A stretch of 54,430 nt of DNA, the filler included, from Circinaria calcarea (Eukaryota): NCBI GenBank assembly GCA_051942165.1. It is 4 parts of 4 records of this genome, joined end to end, with 100 filler letters (N's around TTAATTAATTAA, not from the genome) between each part and the next. Parts side by side here need not be neighbours in the genome. Positions count along the whole stretch, not along the records: positions 1 to 13,586 come from JAVECS010000487.1; 3 more parts are not named here. One strand, written 5' to 3'. Below the pieces are notes generated by a model. The model was not told the origin of the DNA and searched no databases. It saw only the letters and a list, made by a program, of their open reading frames with translations. Position numbers and translations under genes: made by a program. Shown one piece after another: positions 2,601 to 37,400 of the stretch. Within the stretch, counting starts at the first letter, position 1. Every line of letters starts with the position of its first letter.

Positions 2601-3269
2601 ATGGGTATCTCACGAGATTCCCGTCACAAGCGCTCGGCCACTGGTGCAAAGCGAGCCTACTACCGCAAGAAGAGGTATGGGGGATATTTACGAAGCTTGA
2701 ACTAGGTGAATCTAATATTCTACAGAGCTTTCGAAAAAGGCCGTCAGCCAGCCAACACCCGTATCGGCGCTAAGCGTATCCATCTTGTCCGCACTCGAGG
2801 AGGAAATCAAAAATATCGTGCTCTCCGTCTCGACTCCGGCAATTTCTCATGGAGATCTGAGGGGATTGCCCGCAAAGTCCGTGTTATCATCGTATCCTAC
2901 CATCCCTCCAACAACGAACTCGTTCGCACCAACACCCTTACAAGATCTGCCGTGATTCAAATCGACGCAGCACCCTTCAGACAATGGTACGAGGCGCACT
3001 ACGGTCAGAGCTTGGGAAGGAGACGTCAGCAGAAGACCGCCAAGGAGGGAGCAGAGACGGCTGAGGAGAAGAAGAGTAAGAGTGTGGAGAAGAAGCAGGC
3101 AGCCAGACACACGGCGCAGGGCAAGGTAGAACCGGCGTTGGAAAGACAATTTGAGGCTGGTCGTTTGTATGCGGTTGTCGCATCACGGCCTGGACAGTGC
3201 GGGCGTGTCGATGGATACATTCTGGAAGGCGAGGAACTTGCTTTCTACCAACGTGCCATCAGAAAGTAA
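2601..3269 (+). CDS. RPS8: 40S ribosomal protein S8 (eS8); join(2601..2674,2726..3269)
   Basis: MGISRDSRHKRSATGAKRAYYRKKR|AFEKGRQPANTRIG...RTRGGNQKYRALRLDSGNFSW...RPGQCGRVDGYILEGEELAFY; GT-AG intron 2675-2725. Confidence 0.98.
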
Positions 3270-5395: not shown

Positions 5396-6301
5396 TCACC
5401 CAGCCGGGTGCTTCTCTACAAACTCCACCACCAGCCGCACAAACTCCTCGGGCGCCTCTTCTGCGACATAATGCCCACTTCCCGCCGCCTCGGCAACCTG
5501 GAAGTCCTCATACATCTCCGCCGCCATGTCACCCGCAATCTCCTTCAATGGGCTCTCAGCTCCGCTCAACGCCAAACACGGCACCTTGCACTTGCCTTTT
5601 TCCTCCACCCACTTCCGATTCTCCTCCGCATCGGTTGGAAAAGCGCGATACAAGTCAAACCCGGCGCGCATCGCTCCCGCCTGCGCGAACTGCACGGTGT
5701 AATGCTCCAAGTCTTCCGTCGAGATGGCGGTGGGATTAACAGCTTCGCAGGTAAAAAAATGCTGCAGGTAAATCCGCTCCCGCCCCGCGACCAGCGCCTC
5801 CGGCAAATCCGTCTGCGCATGGAACGTAAAATGCCACATGTCCGGCGTATTCTTGACCTCTTCAAACGCTTTCGTTCCCGGCAACGGGCACTCACCCCAC
5901 GTCAGGCTCGCTGTGTGTTCCGGGTATCGTGCCGCGTACGCATGTGCTATTATACCGCCGATATCGTGGCCGACAACGTGCACTTTTTCTCGAATGCCTA
6001 GATGCTCGGTCAGGAGGGTGAAGATGTCGGAAGCCATGACAGACTTGGTATAGCCATCTCGCGGCCGCGAGGAGAATCCGGCGCCGCGGTAATCCGGGAC
6101 GATGAGGCGGTAGCCGTGCGAGGCGAGCGGCTCGAGGACATGCCGGAACTGGTAGGAGGTTTGCGGGTAGCCGTGCAGGAGGAGGATAGTGCCTTTGGGC
6201 GACGAGGAGGGGGAGGTGGGAGGCGGAGGGTAGTCGAGGTAGTGGAGGCGGAGGGGTTCGGGCTGGGTACTGAGGAAAGCGTTGCGGGATTTGGGGGGCA
6301 T
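5396..6301 (-). CDS. Alpha/beta hydrolase, epoxide hydrolase-like, 301 aa, intronless
   Basis: LLHGYP oxyanion motif, PDYRGAGFS, nucleophile elbow GHDIGG, cap WHF and LYRA, catalytic His in SGHYVAEE. Confidence 0.93.
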   Translation of the reverse strand: MPPKSRNAFLSTQPEPLRLHYLDYPPPPTSPSSSPKGTILLLHGYPQTSYQFRHVLEPLASHGYRLIVPDYRGAGFSSRPRDGYTKSVMASDIFTLLTEHLGIREKVHVVGHDIGGIIAHAYAARYPEHTASLTWGECPLPGTKAFEEVKNTPDMWHFTFHAQTDLPEALVAGRERIYLQHFFTCEAVNPTAISTEDLEHYTVQFAQAGAMRAGFDLYRAFPTDAEENRKWVEEKGKCKVPCLALSGAESPLKEIAGDMAAEMYEDFQVAEAAGSGHYVAEEAPEEFVRLVVEFVEKHPAG

Positions 6302-8083
6302 GGTTCGGGTGCCTTGCGTTTGTACTATAGTACGAGTAGCAGACGAGATTGGATAAGTTTGGAAAAATGATACTTCTGGTGGAAGTTGATATTGTGGGGA
6401 AGGTCGGGACTGATTTATTAGGTTCGAGTGATGTCATCGTAGCTGTACTCCGTACTGTGGTCGAAGGCATAATCAAATGTTAGCGTAGTTTTTCCATTAA
6501 AATGATGGTTTGATTTCAGTACAGAGAGCTGGAAGATACACCGGAGGATAACCCTCCCATATTACACATTGTTTCCCTAAAGATTTATTCGGCCTTTGCT
6601 GAGTACACCGGGGTTGGTCGAAAGCCGCGCTAACATTGGTTATGCCTGCCACGCATACATCCATAAGCTGATTAAGTCCGACATGGTACTATAAAAGGAT
6701 AACGCGTCAGATTTACTATTTTGGCTGAGCTTCCGTTTCCTTGGTACAGAGTCTCCCAATCTCCTTCATCCTGTCTTGAAGGTTGAATTTCTACTCTCCA
6801 GGAATATGTGGATGCCTACCTGGTCCATCTTATCTCCGATGGGATTCCTTTCCATTTCCGCAGCGGTTTTAGCTTTTGCTCACTACAAACTCCATTAGAG
6901 TTGACTTGGTTTGAGGGGGAGGGAATGGGCATGGTTGGGAAACTGAGCATTGTTAAGGACGGGATTCGGGGATATTCTACCATATCCGAGATGCGCATCA
7001 GCCACTGCATTGGTTGGGATCTGAAAAAACGCTAATCAACGTTTGATGAGCTTGGAAGACACCTCCCGTATGCTGCCACTATCAGCATCGTCCATCAACT
7101 TGAACTCACACAAGGCAAAGGTAGTCTATCATTGGGCATTGGCCCTTTTCTCTGGGTCAATGTTGTTCTCATCGCATATCAACCTGAGCGGTAATCGCGA
7201 ATTGCTTTGATGTCTCACTTTGATACCCTCATGTTCGGGCACTCCAACTTTACGGGAATCTCATAGCTGGTCTTCTATATGGCTGCCACCTTTACCTTTG
7301 CTCAGTTGTTCCCGTTCCGTTCCGCTTTGCTGTCTCAGGATTGCTCTGGAATACTCTCGGTTATTGACTCGTATAGCGCTTCAGCAAGAACCATGGTGAG
7401 GGAAAGAACGGACTCGGTCAATGCCTTTTTGATCTAGAACGTCAACCGTGCAACAGGGATGGTTTCTACTACATGCGAGCCATGTGCAAAATAAAGAGTC
7501 AATTGGTTTCTGTTCCCATTGCTACAGATAGTTGACGGCGCATACAATTGGGGTTACCCTATCATCATTCAGGTCTGCTGCATCCAGTACGAACTAGGAT
7601 TGTTCTCTGTACATCCCGCACTAACAGTCCGTGTGGCTGGTTTGAGTATGATTCAGCCTACCGCCCCACGCCAAGTCGCCGCTGGAGAAATCTATATTTG
7701 CTACCCGGCATAGTTAGGGGTATGGTATGCCGGTGTTCCAGAAAACGGTAGGACAAAGGAAGGTCGAGGTCTAGTTTCAGCTCGAGCGTGACCCATTTGG
7801 ATAAAGAAGCTGCCAGGTCCGCAATGGTATCATCGTACCCTCGTTACTAGAAGTTATTGCAGGTCTTGCTTCTGAGGAGGCGGAGTCAAGAAAACTGTGC
7901 CTTTCTGTCAACTTGCTCTATATTTTCTACATAATATCGAGAATGCCTTTCAGCTCGACAATATGACATTGCACCCCCACGGACTACAAATAGCGATTTA
8001 GGCCCTACTCAGATCCTACTCCTTGTCCCAAGCAGAACACCTAGCTCAGCCTCATAACGACCAAGCAGCTCTGAATCATAGCA

Positions 8084-8962
8084 ATGCTGCTCTCTTCGGT
8101 CAACGTTCTATTGCCTCTTTTCCTTTACGGTTCAATAATAGCAGCAGCTGAGATGGACAACCATTCACAATCCAAAGTCCGCGACTTCGATTTTGCTATT
8201 CGACGTTCCGAAGAGGGCTTGGCGTCTATAGTTACGAGAGGTGGAGTTTCTCTTCAACATGATGATGTTGGCTTCCCATGGCGGCGTTGTACTGTCTGTA
8301 TTTGGCAATGCATCGCCTACACCGCAGTATGCGGGGCCGTGTGCTTTGGAGGCGAGGTTATCCCGTTTGCCGGCCTTGAGGCATGTCTTGTAAGTTTTCT
8401 AGGCCCTTTCCATTCTCCAGCATCGTACCAGAATCTCAGATAATCATCTTCAGTTAGTCTTATAGGTCTTCGGACAGCTAAGTTTCAGTGCAGACTTGTT
8501 TAGGAACATGGGGTGCATCTCAACAGTGTGTACAGTGTGTTTCGGACAAATGCGGTGGGCCACAGATGCCAATAAAACGTGAAGAAGTGGCATTGCAGTC
8601 TCCGTGTACGACCCCGGAGTTCCAGAAGGCAGCATTGCAGTATGTATTCCTTCCGTCCCGCTACGAACTCATGGCATTTGGATTTCTTTGCAAGACTCTA
8701 CTTACTCTTTTCAATCAGCTGTACCGGCATCAGTGGGTTACCAGGGATCTGTACAATTCGACCGCCAAGAGGATCTAAGCATCGCTGGACGGCTATCCGC
8801 AGTAACGATCCTCATACGAATATCGGTAAAGGTTGCACGGCCGCTGTCCCAGACTGCGATATCGCGATTGGAAACTTCTCCGGTCCTTTTGGCTGTTTGA
8901 CCCCACTTGGGGTGGCACGGTTTGCAAAAACAGGAAGAGCCCGGCTCGGCCCTGTCCAATAG
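8084..8962 (+). CDS. Secreted cysteine-rich preproprotein, ~231 aa; join(8084..8389,8494..8639,8719..8962)
   Basis: Hydrophobic signal peptide ending ...IIAAA. Introns GTAAGT(8390)..CAG(8493) and GTATGT(8640)..CAG(8718) join three ORF fragments in compatible phase. Dibasic RR/KR sites; 10 + 6 Cys. Confidence 0.72.
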
Positions 8963-9380
8963 TAGCAGAGTCTTCCAAATTGGAGTTTTTGGGCATTTAG
9001 TAGCGATTCTTTGCTTTTTCTCGTTTCGGCTGCTGCTGGTCAGCCTCAATTATAGAATCATCATATATGCATGCACGACTTTCGCCCTCTACGTAATATA
9101 AACATGTTTCGTTCATACTTTTTTTCAGTTCCCACCGCCTTATTTCTCTTCCTTGTTCCTCGACCCTTTTTCAGCCCTCGATATAAGCTTTTCGCTCCTA
9201 CAAGATTTAACCTTTTTTTGGACGACACGGGCGAGGATGATGCAAAGCGTCAGGGGAGAGTAGGGTTAGGGTGGAAATTCGGGGTGTGGTGTGTAAATTA
9301 ATCTTTGCATATAGACTGGTGGGAAATTTTAATATTTCGCAGGAACTTGGGTGGTCGAAGTCAAATAATACGGGGTGTGT

Positions 9381-9766
9381 CCGGCTGGGTAAATTACCCA
9401 GCGCACCTAGCCGGGCAACGAGGACGGAGATGATGCTCCGTATTCCGCGCAACAGGGCGGAGTTGATGCTCCGCCATCCGCGCAACCCTCCTAGCGCTCG
9501 ACGTTCAACGATGGTCTCTAAGCGAGTGAGGATTTCCGTTTTGAGCATTGCCGGCGCTGAAAGCATCGCCGGCCTAAACTTCAACCACAGCCGCGCAACG
9601 TGGACGGAGTTAACTCTCCGTATTCCGCGCAACCCTCCTAGCGCTCGACGTTCAACGATGGTCTCTGGTTTCCGTTTTGAGCATGGTCGGGCTAAACTTT
9701 AACCACAACCGCGCGACGAGGACGGAGTCAATTCTCCGCATCCCGCGCAACAGTGCTAGCGCTCGA
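9381..9766. repeat. GC-rich degenerate tandem repeat (~118-bp unit, ~2.5 copies) with four (A/G)CGGAG-N6-CTCCG(T/C) palindromes
   Basis: A 43-bp block is identical at 9477-9519 and 9624-9666. Palindromes at 9424-9441, 9457-9474, 9604-9621 and 9722-9739. Inverted repeat GCTGGGTAA-A-TTACCCAGC at 9384-9402. Confidence 0.85.
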
Positions 9767-10781
9767 AGTTTAAGGATAATTTATACAAGGCTGGCTTCCG
9801 TATTGGGTATACACACCGCCTTAAGCTTAGTTTTGCCACGCGGAGGGTCAGGCACATCTACCGCAAGGAAAAGAGTGGAAACATTCATACTATTGTACGG
9901 CGTCGATGGTTGCCCGGGCGAGTAAAGTGCATTGCATACTATTTTGGATTTATCCCCGTTACGGATTGTAAGCCTTTACATTTTGAGTGCATACCTATAT
10001 CTTCTCTCTCTCTCGCGCTCGCCGGGCTCCCCTCGCTGAATCATCACTCCTTTCTTTTCTCTCCCCAACTTCCCCTTAATAAGAACAAGAACAAATCAGC
10101 CTTTCGCCCCTTTTTTTTACAATCAAAACCCATTCCGTATCATACATTTAAACCGAGAATTGTGTGTTTGAGGGGGTTTTCCCCCTCGATAAAATTTTTA
10201 GAAAAAAAGAGGTGTTGTGCGCGCAGACATTGATAATAGGGGTAACATCGTGCTTCATTCAGAGTCTCCAATAAAATGGTATAGTCGGTGTAGAAGATTA
10301 TCTTGACTAGCGCCTTCGGTTGATCCCTGCAAAAATTGCTGGGAAGAAACATGTACAGTGCACTTTTTGCCACCAAACGATATAAGCTGAAGGTTGTGAG
10401 TCCGAATATAAATTTAGTGTTTAGAAATCAATCGTGTTGGTTGGGCTGATGCTGAAGATTGTTAAAAGTTAGAAGGTTGCCGCATCGGTTATTATTTTAG
10501 GCAGCAGCTATACCAATCTATTTTAGCGATATGGCAACCAAAAATACAGGCTCATGAAGGGTTTTTCGAGGTGAAGATTAAATAATATTATATTGATTTT
10601 GTTCCTTCAGAAACTATTATCTGTTACTGGATACCTATATTCCCATCTGCTCGACCAAAGGCTTATATCTTCTTATGTTTATCTAAACCTACATCTTAAT
10701 CTATCCATCTTCTTTCAATACCTCTTTCTCCCGTCCGTCATACCAGATAAGTCAGCCGTAGCTATAATTACTGCATTTACC

Positions 10782-11228
10782 ATGGAATTCCACACGTTTC
10801 CGCGCATCACCGATTTCTCGTTCTCATCCTCCCTCCCCCTCCCGGCCAATTACACACGTGAACTCGACCCCAGCGGCCGACCTTATTACATAAACCACAC
10901 CGACAACACCACATCTTGGTACCACCCGTCCGCTTCCAGACCAAAGCAAGACCCGCGGCTCCCGTCACACATCAAACGCCGCGTCGACGTCAGGGGCCGC
11001 TCCTACTATCTCAATCACGAGACCAAAGAAAGCAGCTGGCCGAACCCACTGAAGATCGACATGGTCCGAGCGAGGGGCCCGGGTATGGGGACGGAAATGG
11101 AGAGGACGGAAGATGGCATCGAGGATTATTTGGTGGATTACGAGACGGGACGTGTGACGGTACCGAGGGTCACTGGCATCGTGTGGGATGATGAGAAGGC
11201 GGGAGAGGAGGATGGTAAGGGCTGCTAA
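10782..11228 (+). CDS. Small tandem WW-domain protein (148 aa)
   Basis: LPANYTRELDPSGRPYYINHTDNTTSWYHP and LPSHIKRRVDVRGRSYYLNHETKESSWPNP match the WW pattern (GRxYYxNH...SWxxP), with a possible third degenerate copy. ATG in ACCATGG context. Confidence 0.85.
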   Translation: MEFHTFPRITDFSFSSSLPLPANYTRELDPSGRPYYINHTDNTTSWYHPSASRPKQDPRLPSHIKRRVDVRGRSYYLNHETKESSWPNPLKIDMVRARGPGMGTEMERTEDGIEDYLVDYETGRVTVPRVTGIVWDDEKAGEEDGKGC

Positions 11229-13586: not shown

Positions 13587-13686
13587 NNNNNNNNNNNNNN
13601 NNNNNNNNNNNNNNNNNNNNNNNNNNNNNNTTAATTAATTAANNNNNNNNNNNNNNNNNNNNNNNNNNNNNNNNNNNNNNNNNNNN
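13587..13686. other. Artificial contig spacer (N44-TTAATTAATTAA-N44)
   Basis: Exactly 100 nt with stop codons in all six frames; identical to the other two spacers. Confidence 0.98.
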
Positions 13687-13688
13687 CA

Positions 13689-15281
13689 ATGGAATCAAAC
13701 GGCAGCCTCGAATCCCTCCGTCGTCTACGGGAGAAAGCCGACACCGTCCTGTCCGATCCCCATAAAAACACCCTCCCATCCATCCCAGCCCTCCACACCT
13801 CCACAGCCTCACTCCTCCAACACCTTCCTCACGAAGGCCTCGGCCTTCGAAAAACGACAGACCACCTCCTGGAAGACATCACCCCGGGCCTCAATGGTTC
13901 CAGTCTATCGCCAAACTACTATGGCTTCGTCACCGGAGGATGCACGCCGGCGGCCCGGATCGCAGATAATCTGGTGACGCTGTATGATCAAAATGTGGCC
14001 GTGCATTTGCCGGGGCAAAGCGTAGCGACGGTGGTGGAAGACCGGGCGTTGGGGATGCTCTTGGAGCTGTTGGGTTTTCACCCGGCGGAGTGGACGGGGA
14101 GGACGTTTACTACGGGGGCTACCGCGAGCAATATTCTTGGTCTCGCTTTGGGACGAGAGTACGTTTTACTTCAGGCGTTGCAGCGGGCGAACGGAGGAAA
14201 AGAGGCGGAAGAGTCCATTGGGGAGTTGGGGATTCTCGAGGCTTGCCGGAGGGCTGGTATCGAGCATTTTCAATTACTAACCACCATGGCGCATTCGTCA
14301 ATGAGAAAAGCCGCCAGTGTCGTCGGGCTAGGGCGGACTTCGGTACACGATGTATGCATGGATGAAAACCCACTTGCTTTTGATATGGAGAAATTAGAGG
14401 AGATGTTGGGACGTGCCCAAACAGCTTCCATTGTTGTGATTTCCTGTGGCGAAGTTAACACTGGGGGGTTTGCCACTCAATCATACGACGAAGTCTTGAA
14501 GTTGAGAAGCATGTGTGACAGGTATGGTGCATGGCTGCATGTCGATGCCGGTGAGTTTGCTTGCCATCTTCAACCCAAACGCAAATATTGATATTAGCTT
14601 GAAGCTTTCGGAATCTTCGCTCGAGTCTTACCAGGACCCGAATTCGCAAAAGTACGAAATGGTGCTGGGGGGATCGAACTGGCCGATTCCATTACCGGTG
14701 ACGCACACAAGCTGCTCAACGTGCCGTATGATTGTGGCTTCCTCTTCTGTCGCTACTCTAGCATTGCTGAACACGTCTTCCGAAATCCCAATGCCGCCTA
14801 TCTGAACTCTGGACATCAAGGACCCGACAAGATTCAGTCCCCACTAAACATCGGAATAGAGAATTCTCGACGCTTCCGAGGTCTGCCGGTTTATACTACC
14901 TTGGTGGCGTATGGCCGATCTGGGTATGAGGATATGCTGAGTCGGCAAGTTTGGTTTGCCCGGACTGTTGCCGCCTATGTATCCCAGCACCAGGAGCTCG
15001 AACTTCTACCCAAGGATCGTCATCAACCTACCGACGTAACATCAAGGATATTCATCATTGTTCTTTTCAAAGCGAAAGATGCAAACTTAAACGCAAGGCT
15101 GGTGGAGAAACTCAATGCCACTTGTAGAATATATGTGTCAGGAACTACATGGAATGGAGAGCCTGCGACCCGGATAGCGGTGTCAAACTGGCAGGTAGAC
15201 GTGGAAAGGGACTTTAACCTTGTCAAAAACACCGTCGAAGGCTTGGTGCATAATTGGAAAGCTGAAACAAGGATAGGCTAA
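13689..15281 (+). CDS. Group II pyridoxal-phosphate-dependent amino-acid decarboxylase; join(13689..14550,14605..15281)
   Basis: SPNYYGFVTGG, FTTGATASNILGL, AHSS, WLHVDA|AFG, PLP-lysine motif DSITGDAHKLLNVPYDCG, IENSRRFRGL, RIAVSNW. Confidence 0.93.
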
Positions 15282-18225: not shown

Positions 18226-21200
18226 ATGACGAGCCATAATCTGAGGGAGCATCTGCACTGGCTTTTGGTCTCGAAACCCTTTGCTCCCCCAGAAGGGATT
18301 CCCACCCCGCATACACAATTAGCATCGACCCAGGGCGGAGCGGAGGTTCTGGACACAGCTCCCGTACAAGTATCCTCATCAACACCACCAGAACCCATTG
18401 GGACAGCGGAAAGCGGCAATGCCGCCGAACCAGGGAGAAACCCCGAATTTCTTCGTCCTGCGATACCAAACCGATCCAACTCTCCGACAGGTTTAGAGGA
18501 TATGGCCCGGCTACAATCTGGGCCCAGGTCCACCAACAAACCACGTTTACTGAGTCATGCATCCTCAGACCCATTGCAGTTACCCACACCTAGGACTACT
18601 CACACGACTCGGATCTCTTTGACGGATCAGTATAAAGCCGCCTACGAACCTCGGACTGGAAGTGAGTGTTCCATTGCATTCTCAGACTCTCGACCCTAAC
18701 ACATGACGAGCAGCTTTAAACTCCACATCCACCACCCCAAGCAGACGACGGCCGCAGCAGATTCCAGAATCGTCACGCCCGAGGCCATTGACGACAGTTA
18801 GCGAGAGACTTTCGCCCGAGAACGAGCGGGAACTTGATGTCCAAACTTCTTCCTCGAGCACTGTAGAGGTTTTCGGTGAATCTCGAGCGATATGGAGGGA
18901 AGACTCAGCATCTCGTATAGAACCAGTAATAAGAAGGGGCCGGAAGAGGAAAAGCGAAGAGATGGAAACCAATGCCTCTAATCGGCCGTCGAATCGTCCC
19001 TCCAACATGCATGATCGATCATCACAAAGCAGTTTTGTGGCCATAGACTCGTATCCCGAGGAAGAACCACCACCGTATTCTACGAACCCCGTGCAAACAA
19101 CTAAACAAGCCTCGTTTACTTTTGCTGGAAATTTAGATCATGAGGACGATGATGATTTGCTGGAGGTTGTAGAGCAATCTGATCTGCCTGATAGTCCTTT
19201 CGGTGAGCGCGGGGACGGCGTGGATATATCACTCCAACATGCCTCGAGTTTTAAACGTTCCTTGTTATCGCGATCTGGAGCAGCCGACCCATCGCCCATT
19301 GATTTTGTGAAGAGACACGCTGCTAAAACCGGCTCCGTGAATGGCCGCAGAATACAGAAATGTTCCATTACTGACTCAGAAGATGAAGATGACGCTCTGA
19401 TATCCCAAGAGACATACCAAAACAAGAAATTGAGTAGTTCTTCGTCCGCAAAACAGGGGCCTATCGATATGAAATATCCTAGTTTGTCCGCTGCTCAGGT
19501 TGAACCTCCACGTTCTACGAAAGCCAAGGTTACTAAACCACAAGCTCGTGTCACGGCAAGTCAAAATGCCGATGTCAAGTCTATGAGGCCAATCCTTACA
19601 GAAGCCAAATCCGTTGCGTCTCCTTACCAACGGGATTCCCCTACAAAATACACGGGCAACAACTCAGAGGAACAGCCAAAAGAAACATCCTCTAGTGGTC
19701 TCGAAAGCGTCCATCACACCTCCGTTCAATCCTTTCTTGCGCTGCAGCCAAATCGATTACAAGCTTTTCTCGACAGCCTACATAGCGCCAGAAGATCAAA
19801 TGCCCAAGTGGGTTATGAATTCTTGATGGAGGGGAAGGGTGACTTTGAGAAGCTCCAGCAAGACATTGCACGACTGAAGAGTAGAATTGATGACATGGAC
19901 ATACTCTTACCACTGAGGGACGAGCACCTTGAATTGACCGCCCGCAAGGAAAAGATAAAAAATCGTATGATTACCGCGATTGAAAAAGACAACATGCAAG
20001 ATTATTCTCAAGATGTGGCGGAGACCCAAAAAGTAACACGACGGTTGGCACAGATCGAGCAGGAAATTTCGATACTTCTAATTAGGGTTTCTCTTCCTGT
20101 ATTGGACGACGAATCTCCAACGCCCAGTGCGTCAGCCACGATATCTCATATAACAACCCATGAGAATATTCAGCCAGCTGTCATTGTCCAGTCTACCCAA
20201 GCGCTATATCGTAGGCCTGAGGCAGGTAGTCGAAACACTTCGGTACCACCATCGAGCGTTCCTATGCGCACTCAATATGTCGGACAAACTCAACTTTTCA
20301 CCAACAGTCCACAGACACCTAGAATGAAAGCTCAAACCTATATCAAGCCCGATGGAAGCTCGCGGCAGGATTTAACGGAGGCCCAGTTGCGCACAGAGGA
20401 AAATCAACCTTTGTCTCGTCGCCCCCAGAGAACACCGCTTCGGACATATGTTCCTCACCCTGATGCTACAGATGTCACAGCATATTTCTCTCCTTCTAAG
20501 CAGAAGCTAGGACCAGCCAATCTTCCTGCCCATGATGTGCAGCGGGGTGCCGAACATTTCGCCGACGAGGAAGATGCATACAGGAATCAAAAGATTACCC
20601 TCCTAGAGACTTTGGAAGATGATGAAGAATACGGACAAGATGAAGATGACAACGACATGCTTGAAGTTGCAGAACAGCTAGATAACCGCGGCACATGGCC
20701 TGCTCCCAAGGCTGCAAGCTATCAGCGTGTCGTCTTTGCGGAGACTGCAGGTAATGTGACGAGGTCTGCATTGCCAAAAATTCCTCTGCACCATTCTCAG
20801 GGTCCCACTCAAGCCCTTCACATGCAACATCCATGGTCTCGCGATGTCAAAGCTGGGATGAAAGAACGATTTCATCTACGTGGATTTCGTCCAAACCAGC
20901 TTGAGGCTATAAACGCAACATTAAGTGGTAAGGACGCGTTTGTTCTGATGCCTACTGGAGGAGGTAAATCCCTGTGCTATCAATTGCCCTCCATCATTCA
21001 ATCCGGAAAAACTCGCGGGGTGACCGTCGTCATATCCCCATTGCTAAGCCTAATGCAAGACCAGGTAGACCACTTACAAAAGCTTAAGATCCAGGCACTT
21101 TTCATTAATAGCGAAGTGAGCCCGGAACACCGTCGTCTGGTCATGACGAGCTTAAGGGACCATCATGTGGACAAGTATATCCAACTATTGTACATCACAC

Positions 21201-23740
21201 CAGAGATGATAAACAAAAGCCAGGCTCTTATCAACGCATTTCGTGAACTTCATCAAAGGAAAAGGTTGGCTCGGTTTGTGATCGATGAAGCACACTGCGT
21301 TAGTCAATGGGGTCACGACTTTCGTCCGGATTACAAACTTTTGGGCGAAGTGAGACAACAATTCCAAGGAGTTCCAGTCATGGCATTGACAGCAACGGCA
21401 ACAGAAAACGTCAAGCTTGATGTGATCAATAACCTGGGCATTCAAGGTTGTGAGGTCTTCTCTCAGAGCTTTAATAGACCCAATTTGACATACGAAGTTC
21501 GCAGCAAATCGAAGGGAAAAGAGGTCCTTGAAAGCATGGCACAGACGATTAGCATGTCTTACAAGAATCAATCAGGCATAGTGTATTGCTTGTCACGCCA
21601 GAATTGCGAGAAAATTGCTAAGAAACTACGGGAGGAATACGGTATCAAAGCACAACATTACCACGCAGGCATAGACCCGACAGAAAAGACAGCTATCCAG
21701 AAGGAGTGGCAGGCTGGAAAATTTCATGTCATTGTCGCGACCATTGCTTTTGGCATGGGTATTGATAAGCCAGACGTACGATTTGTTATTCACCACACTA
21801 TTCCCAAAAGTTTGGAAGGCTATTATCAAGAGACTGGTCGCGCAGGGCGTGACGGCAAACGCTCAGGGTGCTATCTGTATTATGGCTATCAGGACACAAG
21901 CTCGCTGAAACGTATGATAGATGAGGGAGAAGGTAGCTGGGAGCAGAAGGAGCGACAGCGCAAAATGCTTAGAAACGTCATTCAGTTTTGTGAGAACAAG
22001 AGTGACTGCAGAAGAGTACAGGTATTGAACTACTTCAACGAGATTTTCAGACGCGAAGACTGCAATGGAGCATGCGACAACTGTAACTCAACCAGCACCT
22101 TCGAGAGTCGAGACTTCACTGAGTATGCCATTGCTGCAATTGACTTGGTCAAAATGATGCAAGGGAATAACGTCACGCTACTACATTGCGTTGATGTTTT
22201 CCGAGGGGGTAAAAATAAGAAGATGGCCGCCCTGGGCCACTATAATCTGGAGAACTATGGGGCTGGTTCAAACCTTGATAGAGGAGAGGTGGAAAGACTG
22301 TTCCACCGCTTGTTAAGTGAAGGTGCCTTGGCAGAGGTCAATGTGATGAACAAGGCTGGATTCCCATCGCAGTATATCCATGTAAGTTCCCCGAAATAAG
22401 CCTGATACATTAACTAGAGATTTGTACTTATAAAAAGTAGCTCGGCAAGAACTGTAATGGGTTTATGAGTGGTCGCCGCAAACTAAAAATACAGGTGCGG
22501 GTGTCGCCGAACGGTAAGAGCAAGGGCCCTGCAAAGGCTACAAGGGCAAAGGTCACTGGAGTTTCAGCATCCCGAAGAGAGTATCCCCAGTCCACCAACG
22601 TATCTTCTCCTATCCAAGCAGCAACTAGGCGGCGGAATATGCAGGAGTTTGAGGACGTTGAAGATTCTACACTACATAGAAACGGATACAAACGGGATAA
22701 TTTCGTGGTCAGCGATGCTGAGGATCAATCTTTCATGGAAAGTGATGAGGATGAAGAGGTTGCCTTCGAACCTATCCGTAAGGCTGGGAAGCGTCAAACA
22801 GTCAGGAAACGACAGCTAGGACCGCCTATTACTACTGATCAGAAGATGGATAGACTGAACGATACCCATCGGATAGTAGTAGAAGATTTCATGATAAATG
22901 CAAAAATAGAGAGTGAAAAGGTGAGTGTAAAGACTAGGCTTTTTACCAGAATTTTACTGATGTTCCAGCTCCTCATCTCCAAGGGCCTGAGAGATCAACC
23001 TTTTACCGATTCGGTACTCCGAGAGATGGCGATTAATTTTCCCAAAGGTGTGGTGACCATCTCAGATCTCATAGCAGCATGGCTAACGCATTGTAGATGA
23101 GAATGAGATGCACGAAATACCAGGCATCAAAGCCGACAAGATCGAGCTTTACGGTAAACGCTTCCTTAAGCTCGTTCGGACATCCCAACAGGGCTACGAG
23201 GCTATGATGCAACAGCAGGAGGACCGCCCTCAGGATCCGAATCATCAAAATGTTATCAGCATCAGTAGCGATGACGATTTTGACAACCCTGAATTGGATG
23301 AATTTGAAGATGACAATGCTTCCCAAGATGAACGAAGCTCTTATTTTCGGGCGGACCCTGAAGTTGATGCTTTCAACGCCCAATGTAAGTAAAAGCCTTG
23401 TGATTTATCTACCACCCAATAACCCGTCTTTTTAGTTTCTCAAATTCAAAATGAACCTTTGGCAGCACCCACCCGCACATACCCACAAGCACAGGAGTCC
23501 AAAAGTCGTGGAGCAAGTAGAGGAGGGCGCGGTGGCTTTCGAGGTAGCTTCCGCGGGGGATTTAAAGGCAGCCGTAAGGCGTCTAGCGGAGCCAGTAAGA
23601 ATAAGACATCCGGCGCAGTTACGAAGAAAAAGCCCGCCACGAACAGGCACAGCAATAATAGTTTCAATGGGGCTTCCACCAGGCACGGCGGTGGCACTGG
23701 TGGATTTGGCGGCGGGGGGATCGGTATGATGCCGACGTAG
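18226..23740 (+). CDS. SGS1: RecQ-family DNA helicase Sgs1/MusN, multi-exon
   Basis: FRPNQLEAINATLSGKDAFVLMPTGGGKSLCYQLP, DEAHCVSQWGHDFRPDY, ATIAFGMGIDKPDVRFV, YYQETGRAGRDG, RQC Zn motif (CRR...CDNC), HRDC-like region, RGG tail. Confidence 0.96.
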
Positions 23741-24191
23741 GGGTCTGGCGAAACCGGAAGCTTTGGCATGAGGCCATTCATCTTGAGTCTGGCATAGCTA
23801 GAATCGGCTGCCTTGGAAGGGGTTCACAATGGGGGTATGCAGCCCTTTTGCTGTCGTGCACGAGCCCACCACCACATTTCATGTCTTTTCTTATGCTCAC
23901 AGGATAATCTCCAATTGTAAAGAAAGCAGTCCCTGGGCTCCTTTGGACCATCCTCATGTCATACTTTCCCTTTCCGTGATTTGTCCGAGTGATGGGTGGA
24001 ATATCGAGGGAAAGAACCTTAGGGCTGGATAGAAGCTCTTCCAACCGGATAGGGACTAGTCATCATTCTGATTGCGCCTTCCCAGCTCTTCCCATGTCAT
24101 CGACCATCCCATGCATCTCTTACCCATATCCTTCACCAGGACCTTTGGAAGGCATCCATCAACTTGAGGCCGACGAGTGTCAAGCGGCAGA

Positions 24192-27100
24192 ATGCCACTT
24201 TCCGACATCTCGGTCAATATCGTCGGTAGACCTAGGAATGCTGGTCGTTACGACAACCCAAGGGCCGCCAAGGTCGAGGTTCATGGGGAGAACCCAGTCG
24301 GCTTCGATTCATCCCTCGCGTCGATACATGGGATGCTCAAGAATACCACCGAGACTGGAGATATCGGGCAGTTCTCGATCAAGTCTGCTCCAACCCCACA
24401 TCCGGTTGCCTTGGTTCCACCTGAATCTCCCACATACCTGCATCATCACCTGAACCTACCGAAGCACCAGGTTCATCAGCTTGAAGAATACACCTACCAT
24501 GGTCAGCGTCGTGTCGATAACTGGCCACGAACGTCGATGCTGGATTACAGAGGTACTGGAGCCTCGAGCATGGTCTCTCTACGCCATTACGGGAGTCAGG
24601 AATCAGTCAACCTTCGACCTCGTCATTTAGTCAACGGTCCTTTAGCTTTCCCTTTGCTTCCAAACTTTCATGTTGGCTACGGCGTCTCTCGTCATCAACT
24701 ACACACCAGCCCTAGACCACGGTCCCCCTTTGCTTATCCCACTAGATTGAAACGACCTGGCTATCGACCCGCTTCACCAGCTTTAGTTAGTCTTCATGGG
24801 GTTGCATCAGGAATGCGAGGTGATGGTGAACAAGTAAAACCCTTTCGTACTTCTTCTCCCTTATCTCTGCACGCAGGAAAGAGAATACCATTAAACAATC
24901 GTTACGATCCTAATCGATCTGTTCCATCTGTTCCATCTCTATCATACTCCCATAATACCACCCCATCACCGCTCACCAGATTCAAAGATGGAGCATGGAG
25001 TACGCCAAGTGGGCCAAGTCAAGGCCCAACCCCACAACCATCCCCAAGACAAAGTACTACATATTACGATGGACAGTTTGGTGAAACTACCGCCAAAGGA
25101 CGGATGCACCAACAATCGCCATCTCCCGTTCCCTTGTTCTACGACTACACTGAGGCATTTGAAGAGGAATACAGATATCACAGCGCGAACTTATCCGTAG
25201 TTTCACTAGTGGGTCAAATCATACCTGAAGATGAGGAAGTAGAGACCTACCATGAGCTTGAGGGGGATTTGGGAGTCTTGCCGCCTGCAGAACTACCAAC
25301 CCAGTATCATGCTAGTCCAGCGTCGTCCAAGGCTTTTAGACATACATTGGACAGTCCGTCACCAAGTTCTATCCCCGGCAAAGTCCTGGCACAAATGGCC
25401 TCTTGGATGAACGTGGAAGGTGATGGAGCTGTAGATACTTCTCTTCAGACCACAGAGCGAGAAAGGGAAGATTCAGAATACGAGGAGGGTAATAAGATAT
25501 ATTGCAAAGAGGGGACCGAACCTGGAACATCAGATGCAGACACCATGGGACACCATATACTCTCCTCCTCGAAGCGAAGAATCCAAGCTCTCTCCGTCCT
25601 AAATCCATATCGTGCTGCCAGCTGTCCGAATTTTCGGCGAGCTTCTGTGCTGCCAACTCTTCCATCGAATAGGCTTAGTGGTCAAGCAGAGCCTCCCAGG
25701 AAGCCGCCCATGGTTTGTGAAGATAAAAACGCGACAAACTCCGATACGAATTATCGGTCGTCGCGGTCATGGAGGATCCCATCGATGAATTTTGACCAAT
25801 TAGAGGCTATTCGTCAGGAGGACGTATCGAACGTCGAGACATCACAGGCCTCACGGAATGATACGACCCGCCAGGTTGAAGGGATAGAGATATGTGCCCC
25901 TGTTGCTGAGCGACCTGTCTCAATTCAAAGTCGAAAAGAGAGGCTGAGCCGTATACTATCCATCAATGAAGCGTCAGCCGAACTTGCAAACGTCGTCAAG
26001 GATAGAAGAGCCGACAAAGTGAATGGACCAACGTCGGATTCAATAGCAGAACTCCCTGCAACACCACCGCCTCATGACTCGATTACGAACCTCACTGGAA
26101 AATCAGTTAATATTAGCATACCTGCCAGACTACCAACGCTAGAAGGGAAGGATTCAAATCAGAGTGTGCCTGTAGAGTCATGTGCACTGGGAGAAAACAG
26201 TGAGGAACCTGTGCAAGGAAGGTTATCAACAGCATCCAACGCAGGTCATTCCAGATCGAATTCCGAAGATCTCCAACACATTGACAGTAGGAACGCATAT
26301 CCGTGGACATCGATGTATCACCGTACATTCAATTTCCCTCCAGCAGCAGCTCGGCCAAAGTTACATGTGTCCATGTCCCACAAAACTACCAGGTCGACCT
26401 TACCTACTACTGAATCTCACATTAGTCGAGGCTCAGAAGATGCGTCCTCGATGTCACGAACTGTATCATATGTGTCTGTTCCGCCTAGAACGAGCTCAGT
26501 ATCAGAGCAATTGCCGTTCGCCTTCACTCCTTTGATCAATGTCAAGAACAAGACTCATGTACCAGCAGAAGGTCATCATGGGATGGAGGAATTTTCAGAT
26601 ACTCAGAATCTCGAAAGAGAAATCCGGCCGCTTCTGATGCCCAAGTTCAAGCTCAAGATGAGAGCTGAGAACAGTATAAAAGCCTTATTTCAAGAATCAC
26701 AGTCCGGACAGTTGGGCGAGTCAGCCGTAGTTGGCGCTTTCTTGAATGAGTCGAGCCTCAATACGTCTGACCCAGCTATAAAACCACCAAAATTTAGACT
26801 AAAGGTGACAAAACCTACGAGTTCGACCGATGGGACTGTTAGGGCTAGAAACGGCAGCGCGCCTTCTTTGACATCTTTGACGCAGAGATGGGCCGTTCCC
26901 TCCAATCTCTTCCAACCCCGACAGTGTAGAGAAAGAGGTAATTCAGAGGATACTGCAGTGGAGGAGAGTGGCCCTGTGCCTGCACCGATTCGTACGCGCT
27001 TCACCGAGGCCCTCGATACCCCTTCAGCATCTCCGCCATTTATCACGCTGAGTCCGCCGTCACCTGGCTTGCATTTGACAGAAGTTCGCAGCTTCTTCTC

Positions 27101-27204
27101 GGACGATAGTTCACAGCTACAGCAAGAAGGCAGCATAAGGAAACGTATATCTCAGCTCAAGGCTATCGCAGGTAGAGCAAGTTCGATGGATGATTTCAGG
27201 GGTG
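24192..27204 (+). CDS. Large Ser/Pro-rich, probably disordered protein of unknown function, 3' truncated; start uncertain
   Basis: Open frame of about 1000 codons running into the spacer, with motif-like islands (MLKNTTETGDIGQFSI, RPRSPFAYPTRLKRPGYRPASP, LFYDYTEAF, RSFFSDDSS). Confidence 0.78.
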
Positions 27205-27304
27205 NNNNNNNNNNNNNNNNNNNNNNNNNNNNNNNNNNNNNNNNNNNNTTAATTAATTAANNNNNNNNNNNNNNNNNNNNNNNNNNNNNNNNNNNNNNNN
27301 NNNN
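27205..27304. other. Artificial contig spacer
   Basis: N44-TTAATTAATTAA-N44. Confidence 0.98.
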
Positions 27305-27965: not shown

Positions 27966-30900
27966 TTATCTCTTCCGAACCCGATGCTCGCCGCCCTTTT
28001 TCGGTTTTTTCTTGCCCTTATCGACCGGGAGCATGACCGGCACGTCTTGGAGTTCCCACTGCACGTGCGCGAGGATATAGTCATCTACATCGTGCGCGGC
28101 TTCATCGGTTCCCTCCAGCAAGGGATTAGAAGTTGATGTGAGATTTGATTCCATGCTTTCAAGTGTAGGAGTTCCCCGAACAAGCGTACTGCCGGGAACC
28201 TGCAAAGAAGCAGATGATGGTGGCAGGAGGCTTCCCGGGGTATACGGTCCAGGTGTCCTCGGTGTTGCCGCACCAGCACTAGCCGTCTTCTCATCGAAAT
28301 CGGCATCATCGGCAACCAGTTCCTTCTCGGCGACCTTGGCGGCAGCGATATCTTCTTTATCCTCGGCCTGCTCGAATATCTGTCCAGATAGCTTCCCACG
28401 CCCGGTCCCCGCCCCAAGTACGCGGTCCATGGCTGCACTTGCTTCAGCATCTCCCTCATGGAGAGACTCGTTGTCAAAGGCGTCCTTGATATCGGGCTTG
28501 TTGAAATAATCGGTGGTAAAGTCGCCTTCTTGAATGATGACGTCGTCCAGCATGCGTTTCTGGTTCGCTTTACGGAGAATATTAGCTTCGATCGTGTACT
28601 CGCTGACAAAACGGTAGATGTGCACATCTCTCGTCTGTCCGATCCGATGACATCGATCTTGGCATTGTTTGTCCATCGCGGGGTTCCAGTCCAAATCGTA
28701 GAAGATGACAGTGTCGGCCCCAGTCAGATTGATGCCCAGGCCCCCAGATCTCGACGATAGGATGAAAGCTAAGATCCGATTATCGCTGTTAAAGCGGTCG
28801 GTAAGAATTTGACGCTGTTCGATCTTGGTAGATCCATCAAGTCGGAGGTAGCGGTGTCCATGAATGTTCAAGAACTGTTCGAGGATATCAAGAACCTTTG
28901 TCATTTGAGTGAAGATAAGGGCCCGATGTCCGCCAGCTTGCAAAGTACGTAGAAGAACGTCAAGTCGCTGTAATTTCCCACAGTCGTATTGAAGGAGTCG
29001 TTTATCAGGAAATGCAATCGAGAGACGCATGCGAGCTTCGTGAAAGGAATCCGCCGGATAGGTCTGCTGTGCTTCTCGAATCATTTGAATACCAGGCTGG
29101 GAGAGAGTCAGGGGTGTCAGATCTGGTGCAATTACGGCAGGTGTCACACAAGCGAACTTTTGGATAGTGGATTGCAATGCCTCGGAGCGGCGTGGTAATG
29201 TCAGCACCATGTCCCCCATTGCAGGTGATAGATCTGAGAACCAATCCAGAAGTTCTGATCGTCGCTTTGGATAAGGTCGTGAAGGCAAGCGATCAAGATC
29301 AAGACGTAAACGCTCCATAAGGCTGTAACTGTACAACGGCCGTCGTTGGCTTCTCAGGCTTGTCAAATAGGCGTTGTGACGAAGCCTTTCCAACGTTGAG
29401 GTGCGAGCGGTGTTTTCCATATATGCCAAGCATGAATCGATGGATGTACCTTCGTACGGCATGTTGGTAAGTATCCGTCCGTATTGCTGCGCCACTAATT
29501 GCCTCAATTTACCCAGAGCCCCAAGTCTGCAGTTCTGAATGGTATCAAGAGCAGACACCGGTCCATTGGCGCCAGGTAGCAGGTTGACGACATCAATATC
29601 GACTTTCTGCATAGGATCCTCCTGCAAAAGGCGTCGTCGGACCAGAAGCTCTTTGATCTCAAAATCGGCAATAGCAGATTTGGACATAGCAAACGAAGTG
29701 ACAATCTGTCGAGTCTCGAAAAGATCCGGATGATTGCAGACTTTACGAAGTTGCATCAAACAGTTGATAATTGACAGATAATTGCCACTGGCCAAAGTCT
29801 CCCGTGTCTGCGCCCTAGACATGAAACCATCATAAAGATACCGTTGACGTTTGGATAATTTGCAGTAGACCACATGTTCATACTTCCCTGGCATCTGCTT
29901 CTCCACGTCTGCCTTGAGTCGACGGAGGAGGTATGGTCGCAGGACGCCGTGGAGCCTCCGAACAAGTTCCTTGGCTTCGTCATCCATGGTGTCTCTGCCT
30001 TGTTCGAGGATCTGATCCACTGGCTTCTTGAACCAGCTGGTGAAAGCCTGCAGATCTGCGAAACCTGAAATGCCAGTGTCGGTGCTATCAGAAGGCATAA
30101 GGAAGAACATCAACGACCATAATTCTGTCAAGTTATTCTGGAGTGGAGTCCCTGTCAAGAGGAGACGAGCTTGGGTTCTAAAAGTAAGAAGGGCTTGCCA
30201 TCGCTGGGAACGGAAGTTCTTGATATTATGAGCTTCATCAAGTACTAGATAGTGCCAACCGCGTTTCTTGAATGTGATCTGATCCTGTAGAACAAGTTGG
30301 TACGAGGTAATGCAGACGTTCCACTTGTCGTCATCTAGCCATCCTTTACGCTTCTGCTTTCGCTCCTCCTGTGTCCCATAGTATGTCAGAATCTTAAATG
30401 CTGGCAGGAACTTCTTAAACTCCATTTCCCAGTTAAGCATGACACTCGTAGGGACGACAATCAGATGAGGTCCCCAAACTTCATGCTCAACAGCAAGGTG
30501 AGCAAGCAAGGAGATTGTCTGTATCGTCTTCCCAAGACCCATTTCATCGGCGAGTATACCGTTGGTTTTGTTTGCATAGAGACCGGCCAACCAATCAAGG
30601 CCATAATGCTGATACTCTCGAAGTGTGCCCCTCAAAGGGGATGGAACTTGGGTTTTCAGAGGTTGTGATGATACTGGAGTCATAGGCAGTGAGTCCTGCT
30701 GACTTTCTGCCGTGGTGTCAAGGTGTGCCAATTCGTTAAGCAAGGAAGGCTTGCTGGGACCCAAGAGATTTTTGGAAGTCTTGTTTGACTCAATCGTAGA
30801 GCTTGCCACGCTAGGAATATCGGTGTCGATAGCAAGTTTCATGCCTTTACTGGCGTCAATGGATGGTGCTTCACTATTGCTCGCAGATGGAGTCCGGACT

Positions 30901-33092: not shown

Positions 33093-33527
33093 TTCTCGTG
33101 GCGTGAATTCAGTCCCTTTCCCCGAGGGACCCCCAAGTGACAAACCAAACCACGCTTAAACGGGTCGATTGTGGCATCAAAAGAAAGCTTAGCATGTGCC
33201 TAGTCGAGTCCCGAGTTTTTGAACGGGATGGCGACAGTTTTGCGTCCTATGTCGGGGAAACAAAAGCTGTCAGACCTGTTGGTGTGAGCATTGGACTTTT
33301 CGGCGAGGCTTAAACTCTACTGCCGCACCACGCCTTACCACACTCGTCCGGAGCAAAGTGCCCCGGTCATGCGCAAACTCGGCCGCCGTAATGACATACC
33401 TAACCCTTCGCGAGTCGAGACCACCAAAGTACGGTCAACGCTCGTAGCTTCACGATGCAGTAACCAGTAGTACTTGAACCTCCTATTGAGATTGATCATC
33501 CCACATGGTCATCAATTATTTCCCCCA

Positions 33528-34447: not shown

Positions 34448-37400
34448 TTACCTCCTCGGCAGGCTTCCCATCATTCTGCCACCACCCGCCATGATGCTCT
34501 GCTTCACTATCAGCTCCGCTGCGGCTGCAGCTGCTAGCCTCTCTTTTTGCCTACTCCTGTCTCTTAGATACCGTTCGGCTTCAGGGCGCATTCTGAGTAT
34601 TCGTAAAATCATATCGTCGTTAGGGTCCGCTTGTGCTTCTTTCCTCTTCTCCTCTTTTGCCTGCTTCATCGTGCCGAGGTTTCGTGAGAGCATGATGCTT
34701 TTGGATCGCCTTGTAGATTGCATGGCGAGCAAGCCAGCTGCCCCTCCAAAAGATAAAGACGCTGGCGCCGACTGTCGATTTCGCTGTGCTTGCTGACGGG
34801 CTGCCGTAGCGGATGCCATCCTTTCTGACGTTCGTATGAGGTTTTCAGTAGAGTCAAAGTAAAAGAAATTCAGCGTCTTGATTTCGAAATATTTAGGGGA
34901 TCTCAACACGTCAAGTGGGACGCCATTTGCCTCCCCTGTTTCCTCATCGACTGCATGGAAAAAGTCGAAGAGCAGCTGGAGCCATTTGAAAACAACATCA
35001 ACCTCCTGCTGGTTAAGTTGACGTTGTTGGGAGGGCTTGTCGGAAAGGGGTGGGACCATCAAAGACTCAATGGTAACCAGCACCTCCTTCCACAGCCGTG
35101 TCATAACCATCACCATGGCAGCGCTGGTAAGTGTCTGATTCATGATAACAAAGTTGTCGTCAAAGTAGGTGAATAGCGGTTTCAGGGCATCCGTTATTTC
35201 AGCCTGGGTAGGTGCCTGACTTGGTGGTGCAGGGCGATTACGATTAAAGTAACTAGAGACACTAGACATGGTTATGCCTTTGGACAAGAGGCTCCGCAAA
35301 GCACGCCGAGATAGGCAGTGGCTTATGTAGGCAGAAAGCTAGCAGTGATAATTAGCGTGGAGCTCGCCGTCTTCAAAGCCCTCTGGTGAAATACCTTGTC
35401 TGTGATTATCCTTGTCATGTCCCTTTCCGTTCTTCTCAGCATTCGAAATGCCTTGCCAAAGTAGAACTGGATATCATCACGCTCGCCTTCCATGCTAACC
35501 CGAAGTAGAAGTCGTCCCTGTGTATCCAAATCCAGCCAGTATTCTCTCGGCATGAAGTCACCAAAATGTGAAGGATCGAGCTTAATCGATGTTCGGCCGA
35601 CGCAGTCATGCTCACCAAGAGCATCCCAGTCCCACACCGTGGCAATGATATTTAGTGGGCCCTGTGTGGTGATATCCACTGTCTCGTCCCAGCGCGGGTT
35701 AAGGTTGCCATAGATGATTCTTGTTTTGGCCAAACGCTTCTGGTATTCATCACCTAGTACCACATAAGGGTCGCTAAGACCATTCATATCGCACGCCTTG
35801 AGGTCTTCGGCTTCGACTATCTTGATACTAAAGACGTAATTATTGACTTTGCGCTGTCTTTGGTTTAACGGAGGGCTGTTTCTTTCGATAACCTCAACGC
35901 ATGCGTCGACATTGACCTCCCGCTCAACTTTGTCCAGTTGTCGCGTGGCAAATTCGATGTTGTTCAGCTTCACGAAAGACTGGCAAGATTTTTAGTTGGC
36001 TTTAAAACTCGGAACGTATGACAAACCTCAGGGAAAAATTGAAATGGCTCAATCTTTTCCTTGTTGCTCCAAGCATCCTTGGCAAGCTGCATCCATTTCT
36101 CTTGCCTGGTTTGACTGGCCGTAGCCTCTTGTTCGGGGGTCAACCGATCCATTTCTTTGGTGAACTTTTGTTCCACAACCTCGCAATAGCGTGCAATGCC
36201 AATCCCAACAATCTTAGCTAACGCCGTCATGAACTTGGCATACTGAAGGTCATTGTCCCAGTTGAGCTGGACAATCCGATCGATGGCTTGATTAAATGAG
36301 CTGAAGATATCGATAACGGACACACTATGACGTTCGTCCTCTGAAGGAACCTGGCCGACGCTTTCAGTCCGCACCTTGAAGTCATCCTGCTTGACAGCGC
36401 CATCTACCCAGTTGGGGATCGAAGACTCTGTCATTGATATCCATCTCCACACGAAGTTGGCTAGGAGGTCTTCAATGTGAAAAGCAAAAGGAACTCTACA
36501 TGCCGGATGGGCACCTGTTAGCTTGATCACGAACATCGCCAGGGTCAAGTGCTACTTTACCGTGGCAATGCTTCCGCGTGTATCTGCCGGATCTCGACTA
36601 ACTCCCGATATAAATCGAAACCATCTTCAATCGGTACTTCTTCGCCTTTTTGCTCGGTCAACTGCAAGATCCTTGCCACAATGTCACGAGCGTCTTCAGC
36701 ATATAGGGGCAGAATCGTCTCCACCAAGGCAGATAATGGATTTACCCTATTTGGTTTCATTAGTCCGGAGGTGAAATATTAGTTCAGATCACTTACCCCA
36801 TAATTTCAGGGTTCTTACGATATCTCTTTTGTATGCGCTGGGCCAGTGTCATAACAGCCTTTCCGAGTTCGATAACATGGAAGAATTCCCAGCTGCGCTG
36901 ATCTTGCGGAAGGTGTTTTTCAAGATACTCTTTATACATGACAAACGCCTTATCCCTCAATCCTTCGCGAAGCTGTTGCGAGAATGCATCGAGGTCTTCG
37001 GGTGTCTTTGGAAAAGTTGGATCATCGTATATATGATTCTCTAGGACATAGATTATCGGGCCCACGGACGGTGGCTTCGATTCGTAACATTGCAGGGCAA
37101 TGTCATATAAATCGCGAAGTAAAGCATCATGAAGCGCCATTAGAACTTGCTGATTCAATGCGAAATCTAAGAGTGTCCATGAAGCACGATCGAGCGGTAG
37201 AGGGCTCATGAAACCCGGATTCTTGCGAGTATCTGCTACAGGTTCTTTGATAAAGTTGAATGCTTCGTCCAGAGTGTCAAGAGAGATCTCCTGCTCTATG
37301 AATTTCTCACGGATCACGTCAAGGAAAAGAACTATCCTTGAGCCTTGAGGGATACGCCAACGCAAGCATATCTCACTGAGTAGGTCGGTGGACGACTTTG

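Follow-up and report, generated by a model that had tools for sequence, protein, structure and literature searches.

A predicted three-exon gene on the plus strand of Circinaria calcarea DNA (assembly GCA_051942165.1) appears, in our best reading, to encode an orphan within a very common kind of protein, the small secreted Cys-rich pre-pro-proteins of fungi. The gene lies in a stretch of 54,430 nucleotides, filler included, which is referred to here as the window. Judged from its relatives, the first exon is a genuine coding exon under constraint, and the hydrophobic Cys domain that begins in this exon is, by the same comparison, under purifying selection. With confidence a little better than even, we suggest that the product is a secreted, Kex2-matured, disulfide-rich hydrophobic protein that acts extracellularly, and that it is encoded by an orphan, lineage-restricted gene of a filamentous ascomycete. 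Of this, the comparison shows directly that exon 1 is under coding constraint and where the 5' splice site at its end lies. Among the families searched, none was found to which the conserved hydrophobic ten-Cys core would belong.

Removal of two GT-AG introns from the region 8084-8962 leaves 696 nt in frame, which translate into a product of 231 aa (Table 1). Three separate stop-to-stop frames (8075-8443, 8482-8778 and 8576-8962) are needed to assemble it and none of them alone contains the whole, in agreement with the statement in the first-pass annotation that no single ORF shows the product; the coordinates, introns, Cys counts and dibasic sites given there were all recomputed from the sequence and proved exact. 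The product has 16 Cys, ten of them in module A (positions 69, 72, 76, 83, 87, 101, 104, 114, 117 and 122) and six in module B (140, 152, 162, 190, 197 and 210), and its dibasic sites are RR at 40-41, RR at 67-68 and KR at 130-131. The description of module A as hydrophobic is borne out by a GRAVY of 0.96 for residues 69-122, which are also acidic (pI 4.1), and module B as modelled (residues 132-231) is basic, as had been proposed, with a pI of 9.15. The spliced protein matches only itself in the window.

Table 1. Features of the gene at 8084-8962 and long ORFs elsewhere in the window (KD19, Kyte-Doolittle 19-residue maximum; P0009 and P0010, the two relatives of exon 1).
Feature	Position	Strand	Evidence
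Exon 1	8084-8389	+	ATG at 8084; 102 codons
Start codon and predicted signal peptide (residues 1-22)	8084-8149	+	translation; KD19 1.88; identity of relatives
Pro-region (residues 23-66), hydrophilic, 0 Cys, GRAVY -0.81, poorly conserved; contains RR 40-41	8150-8281	+	
Conserved RR (residues 67-68) abutting the first Cys, candidate Kex2 site	8282-8287	+	GFPWRR 6/6 in both relatives
Module A, exon-1 part (residues 69-102, 6 Cys), hydrophobic	8288-8389	+	34/34 (P0009) and 28/34 (P0010) identity; KD19 1.72 at 71-89
Intron 1, 104 nt, GTAAGT...CTAAG...GTGCAG	8390-8493	+	canonical ends; similarity collapse
Exon 2	8494-8639	+	translation
Module A, exon-2 part (residues 103-122, 4 Cys)	8494-8553	+	translation; codon usage of exon 2
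Linker (residues 123-131); KR at 8575-8580, candidate second Kex2 site	8554-8580	+	translation
Module B, start within exon 2 (residue 140 is its first Cys)	8581-8639	+	translation
Intron 2 as modelled, 79 nt, GTATGT...CTTAC...AATCAG	8640-8718	+	canonical ends, pyrimidine tract
Exon 3 as modelled: remainder of module B, 5 Cys, basic; stop TAG at 8960-8962	8719-8962	+	translation
eS8	2706-3269		long ORF
alpha/beta hydrolase	5396-6433	-	long ORF
WW-domain protein	10575-11228		long ORF
Kelch protein			long ORF
RecQ	18707-22399		long ORF
SNF2 ATPase	27966-33155	-	long ORF

Support better than chance is confined to exon 1, where conservation in two independent relatives is of the kind expected for a coding exon ending at 8389. 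With this exon as query, a word-index search of 5.8 billion proteins returned three candidates of 56-179 aa, two of which are relatives, and no match among longer proteins. Both relatives are single-member ENA metagenome ORFs, P0009 with 132 aa and P0010 with 139 aa, which are 87% and 61% identical to the window over the whole exon, share its start and run on into the intron. The identity is distributed unevenly among the segments. The leader retains 18/22 residues in P0009 and 15/22 in P0010, residues 23-62 of the pro-region 31/40 and 13/40, and GFPWRR followed by the Cys domain is conserved as listed in Table 1; the in-frame read-through of the intron is of a different length in P0009 and has 18/37 identical residues in P0010. 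In P0010 conservation of the Cys domain exceeds that of the intron read-through (Fisher p=0.0057), and conservation of GFPWRR and the Cys domain together exceeds that of the pro-region (Fisher p=3e-6). Identity in the pro-region does not differ from that in the read-through (p=0.17), suggesting that the pro-region drifts at a roughly neutral rate. It is this segment-wise identity in two relatives, an unusually clean pattern of conservation, that shows the hydrophobic Cys domain to be under purifying selection.

The same relatives locate the end of the exon. Similarity to both of them ends at the first codon of intron 1, exactly at the predicted GT, and this collapse pins the 5' splice site to 8390. 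In the window the read-through contains an in-frame TAA, and that of P0009 stops at another length. Ten acceptors were paired with the donor at 8390. Of these, 8493 keeps the frame open longest, for 196 aa up to any second intron, and the AG five bases upstream of it (8487-8488) leads to a stop after four codons. The read-through of P0010 is 37 codons long, as in the window, and its last 13 codons are 8/13 identical as against 10/24 for the part before them. At the position of the upstream CAG of the window P0010 has His, and in the last read-through codon the sole change, Val to Ala, would be silent, falling on the third position of the first Cys codon of exon 2, if the protein is carried back to DNA. 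These two points would fit an acceptor at 8493, and fall short of proof.

The leader begins with a hydrophobic stretch whose Kyte-Doolittle maximum lies at residues 1-19, and a stretch of three alanines before Glu23 places small residues at -3/-1 of a putative cleavage site, the position of which was judged by eye. The signal peptide proposed in the first-pass annotation is consistent with this signal-like leader and with its retention in both relatives, and stands as a prediction. If so, the leader would take the protein into the ER, and the fast-evolving pro-region would end in the conserved GFPWRR, where a Golgi protease of the Kex2 type probably cuts after the candidate RR. Such a cut would release the conserved, acidic and very hydrophobic domain of about 54 residues, the ten Cys of which would probably form five disulfides. 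The existence of the basic module B with its six Cys, and of the KR preceding it, depends on intron 2 being spliced in the way modelled. The most likely role of the product would be that of an extracellular, membrane- or surface-active protein directed against competitors or hosts.

The two RR sites, both of which had been put forward as processing sites, differ in how they fare in the relatives. PWRR holds up, as GFPWRR is invariant in the three sequences; AIRR, the site at residues 40-41, is replaced by AIRP in one relative and ASQP in the other and is not supported as a processing site. The conservation of GFPW exceeds what Kex2 recognition needs, so that the RR at 67-68 may belong to the mature domain rather than mark a cut.

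The hydrophobicity of the domain could also be that of a small membrane protein, with a transmembrane helix at about residues 71-89 followed by a CxxC-x9-CxxC segment on the cytosolic side that would bind metal or be acylated. The customary KD19 threshold for transmembrane segments is 1.6, and it is because residues 71-89 score above it, at 1.72, that we give this alternative a place at all, although an improbable one. An AlphaFold2 model of exon 1 with its two relatives contains a helix at 66-88, of low confidence, and the pairs 101/104 and 114/117 provide the CxxC motifs. The putative helix would, however, contain five Cys and three Gly, and its score is inflated by the high value of Cys on the scale. 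The positive-inside rule for membrane proteins is well established, and the conserved RR would lie on the luminal side, contrary to it; the even Cys counts, moreover, suit disulfides. A secreted, disulfide-rich protein is the reading that we retain.

Downstream of exon 1 the gene model becomes less certain. Over the whole CDS codon usage is out of the ordinary, with a score of -0.009 per codon where 23 segments of nine long ORFs give 0.185 +/- 0.064, largely because of its Cys codons. With Cys codons set aside, the proposed frame of exon 1 scores 0.214 against 0.114 and 0.027 for the other frames, and that of exon 2 scores 0.219 against 0.07 and 0.08. The proposed frame of exon 3 is not favoured, at 0.067 against 0.098 and -0.028. 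Since non-coding flanks score 0.05-0.18 when Cys and stop codons are set aside, the test is a weak one with little discrimination. For exon 2 the intrinsic support is modest, and its frame gave no candidate relative in the word-index search. Intron 2, exon 3 and module B are predicted from canonical splice signals only.

Across 8583-8778, about 200 nt that run from exon 2 through intron 2 into exon 3, none of the three forward frames is interrupted by a stop, so that several alternative gene models are possible. At least seven other acceptors for the donor at 8640 keep 190 aa or more open, and unspliced read-through is open to 8778; the read-through and seven of these acceptors give products of 190-239 aa. 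The gene may therefore be genuine and its 3' part mis-modelled, with intron 2 retained (stop at 8776-8778) or another acceptor used, in which case the module B described here would be absent. We consider this a real possibility, which we are inclined to doubt. The indifference of codon usage to the exon-3 frame is in line with it, as is what is found for exon 3 in searches and in folding. No real relative of exon 3 turned up among 1.84 billion representatives in a full HMMER search, and AlphaFold2 gave no usable model for this exon alone (pLDDT 38.8). The five HMMER matches at E<=0.001 were judged spurious, being sums of weak matches over several stretches to repeat-built proteins of 240-1859 aa. 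Against a mis-modelled 3' end stands the fact that 8640/8718 is the most canonical of the pairs, with a GTATGT donor, a branch-like CTTAC 14 nt upstream of the acceptor, a pyrimidine tract and a terminal CAG, and that its use gives an even Cys total of 16; 79 nt is a typical length for a fungal intron. Neither relative of exon 1 is accompanied by an exon-3-like ORF, though the 87% relative sits on a contig of 6251 bases, which speaks weakly against module B being conserved or else reflects the way ORFs were called. A mis-modelled 3' end is compatible with the secreted, Kex2-matured protein that we favour, and does not exclude it.

Searches for a family or fold were made with the exons separately. 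The three exon translations have no match in Pfam or NCBIfam, the best being a sub-threshold EF-hand (E 0.027), and for 8165-9049 neither the six minus-strand frames nor three alternative ones on the plus strand have a relevant Pfam match. One sub-threshold Pfam match, to Bact_transglu_N, lies in a part outside the exons and was set aside. Among PDB sequences exon 3 has no match and exon 1 has two at E above 1; in the ESM Atlas the best score for exon 3, 0.77, is below the lead threshold and residues 63-102 have no usable match. A string of 15 residues from module A occurs in no paper in the literature searched. The statement of the first-pass annotation that neither module is recognisable as a named fungal family is in keeping with these results, with Pfam, NCBIfam and PDB all free of family matches and the HMMER search of exon 3 likewise. 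Hydrophobins and CFEM proteins have eight Cys in a family pattern, which in hydrophobins includes two adjacent pairs, and a clear match to hydrophobins or CFEM had been named as what would speak against a new family. No two of the 16 Cys are adjacent, and the separate exons have no Pfam match to either at E up to 10. The AlphaFold analysis that had been proposed was carried out on exons 1 and 3 and left both models unusable, at pLDDT 42.7 for exon 1 with its two relatives, where helices of low confidence are placed at 66-88 and 94-101, and at the value given above for exon 3.

Pattern scans of other sequence collections led to matches of a different kind. In JGI metagenomes, 11 loci match the pattern DDVGFPWR and nothing beyond it, several of them with stops, and they are rejected as antisense readings of alpha/beta-hydrolase genes. 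Conservation at these loci has a period of three, and the opposite-strand ORF of the one locus put to a Pfam test (L006, 3259-4140, minus strand) is an Abhydrolase_1 with E 4.9e-27. DDVGFPWR, which comes from the pro-region of the fungal protein, recurs in unrelated metagenome contigs because bacterial alpha/beta-hydrolase genes have a conserved motif near the N-terminus that reads this way in antisense, and such matches are a trap for scans with back-translated patterns. A scan of prokaryote genomes gave 81 pattern matches and no relatives.

The long ORFs of the window are fungal housekeeping genes (Table 1). The eS8 fragment is closest to the PDB chains 7r81 and 5oql, which we take to be from the Neurospora and Chaetomium ribosomes and which would point to a filamentous ascomycete as the source. 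No biosynthetic or mobile context was seen in the window around 8084-8962, and the window has no match in Rfam. Just downstream of the gene, degenerate direct repeats at 9415-9777 form three 98-nt copies with 60-100% identity, a 33-nt tandem repeat lies at 9411-9486, and long frames are open on both strands at 9207-9702 with no Pfam match. Elsewhere a PLP-dependent decarboxylase, another of the housekeeping genes, is split over adjacent frames at 13635-14591 and 14598-15281, presumably by an intron, and two large ORFs, 24168-27260 and 36793-38823 (minus strand), are also without a Pfam match.

Module A had been noted to recall halocin C8, and if it were a fungal homologue of that bacteriocin domain, for which the family model is named TIGR04449 in the part of the source available (PMC13368582), the gene would be exceptional. 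For comparison, 301 genomes of one haloarchaeal class were searched, of which 34 have a TIGR04449 match at E<=0.001 and 33 a match over the family cut-off; 30 domains with loci were fetched from 47 listed matches, 26 of them distinct. The genomes sampled carry up to four such matches each, and one group of identical copies is spread over four of them (L137-L140). Both domains are hydrophobic, both open with CxxC and contain CxxxC, 23 of the 30 fetched domains have exactly ten Cys, as module A does, and both have I-P-x-A-G-L within a 13-residue loop between Cys. I-P-V-A-G-L is found in 3/30 archaeal domains, and I-P-V-A-G in the relative P0010.

Homology is nevertheless highly improbable. TIGR04449, with a family cut-off of 24 bits, matches neither exon piece at E up to 10, and an HMM built from the 26 distinct haloarchaeal domains scores the spliced module A at -4.4 bits, which 743/2000 shuffles equal or better. 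Profile-profile alignment of the halocin C8 domains with module A by hhalign gives a probability of 1% over seven columns, and the best Smith-Waterman score, 52 against 45.5 +/- 5.9 for shuffles, is reached by 143/1000 shuffles, or 259/1000 with the Cys positions fixed. The Cys spacing, which had been said to differ, is 2-3-6-3-13-2-9-2-4 in module A and 2-7-3-7-13-7-8-8-5 in the HalC8-like domains. The precursors also differ in layout, with module A central (69-122 of 231) behind a Sec-type leader without twin arginine, and the domain of ProC8 C-terminal and exported by Tat. HalC8 is described, in the accessible text of the source, as 76 residues at the C-terminus of a Tat-exported precursor of 283 residues, the N-terminal part of which gives immunity (PMC11509114). 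Judged from titles and the openings of abstracts, none of the papers found that name both halocin C8 and fungi deals with a fungal homologue. The proposed resemblance fails the HMM, hhalign and Smith-Waterman shuffle tests and shrinks to one short motif, and on this sequence evidence we reject membership of module A in the halocin C8 family. An analogy of function stays open, in which both would be hydrophobic, disulfide-locked peptides. As far as the sources on halocin C8 go, the two are alike in being hydrophobic, in a length of about 54-76 residues, in having ten Cys and in coming from a longer precursor, the release of module A being a prediction.

The cross-domain link to halocin C8, which was the source of the apparent exceptionality of the product, does not hold. 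Should module A prove to be secreted, as a hydrophobic peptide locked by disulfides, it would offer membrane-active antimicrobials a new scaffold, and the gene would be an example of a pro-region that drifts about neutrally beside a frozen mature core.

Comparison with known fungal systems suggests two ways in which the precursor may be understood. One is as a Kex2-processed, two-subunit preprotoxin, in which module A, acidic and hydrophobic, would correspond to alpha and the basic module B to beta, the two acting together as a killer toxin or antimicrobial by analogy with K1, KP6 and SMKT; we think this rather unlikely. K1-type toxins have, according to the part of the source consulted, a delta-alpha-gamma-beta precursor cut by Kex2, and the alpha domain of K1 carries the toxicity (PMC13211469). 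The order of leader, pro-region, RR, hydrophobic module, KR and basic module would parallel that arrangement, the two modules are of opposite charge (pI 4.1 and 9.15), and each has an even number of Cys. Module B, however, hangs on the modelled intron 2, with no support from relatives, codon statistics or folding; a single KR and a linker of nine residues stand between the modules in place of a gamma spacer; and the separate exons match no killer-toxin family in Pfam or PDB. In the descriptions available, S. cerevisiae K1, K2 and K28, Ustilago KP6 and M. farinosa SMKT likewise have a leader and a pro-region and then two modules separated by dibasic sites, the second of which is only modelled here. 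KP6, KP4 and SMKT have an alpha/beta-sandwich fold, and the exon models here, with pLDDT values of 38.8 and 42.7, are below 45. A wider form of this proposal, an undescribed family of chromosomal, Kex2-matured two-chain toxins of filamentous ascomycetes, in which a disulfide-locked, acidic, membrane-inserting peptide of 54 residues would be paired with a basic partner of 100 residues and the peptide would have converged with archaeal halocin C8 in composition and one loop motif, seems to us distinctly unlikely. A toxin role for the product is, by analogy, only a guess.

The other comparison, which agrees with the secreted and Kex2-matured protein that we prefer, is with the K2PP effectors. As far as the accessible text describes them, these have a signal peptide, a pro-domain, a Kex2 motif of the form KR, RR or LxxR and a Cys-rich mature domain, and they include SnTox3, Avr1/SIX4, Avr3/SIX1 and SIX6 (PMC10942635). 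The product described here would, on that description, present the same parts in the same order, namely a leader, a pro-region of about 46 residues, a conserved RR and a ten-Cys domain; the RR at 67-68 stands directly before Cys 69, and an invariant GFPWRR follows a pro-region that is variable among the three sequences. Unlike the K2PP examples, to which it has no sequence relation, it has an acidic mature domain of unusual hydrophobicity (GRAVY 0.96). What unites K2PP proteins is a mode of processing and not homology, and it is as a member of such a class that the product most resembles a known system.
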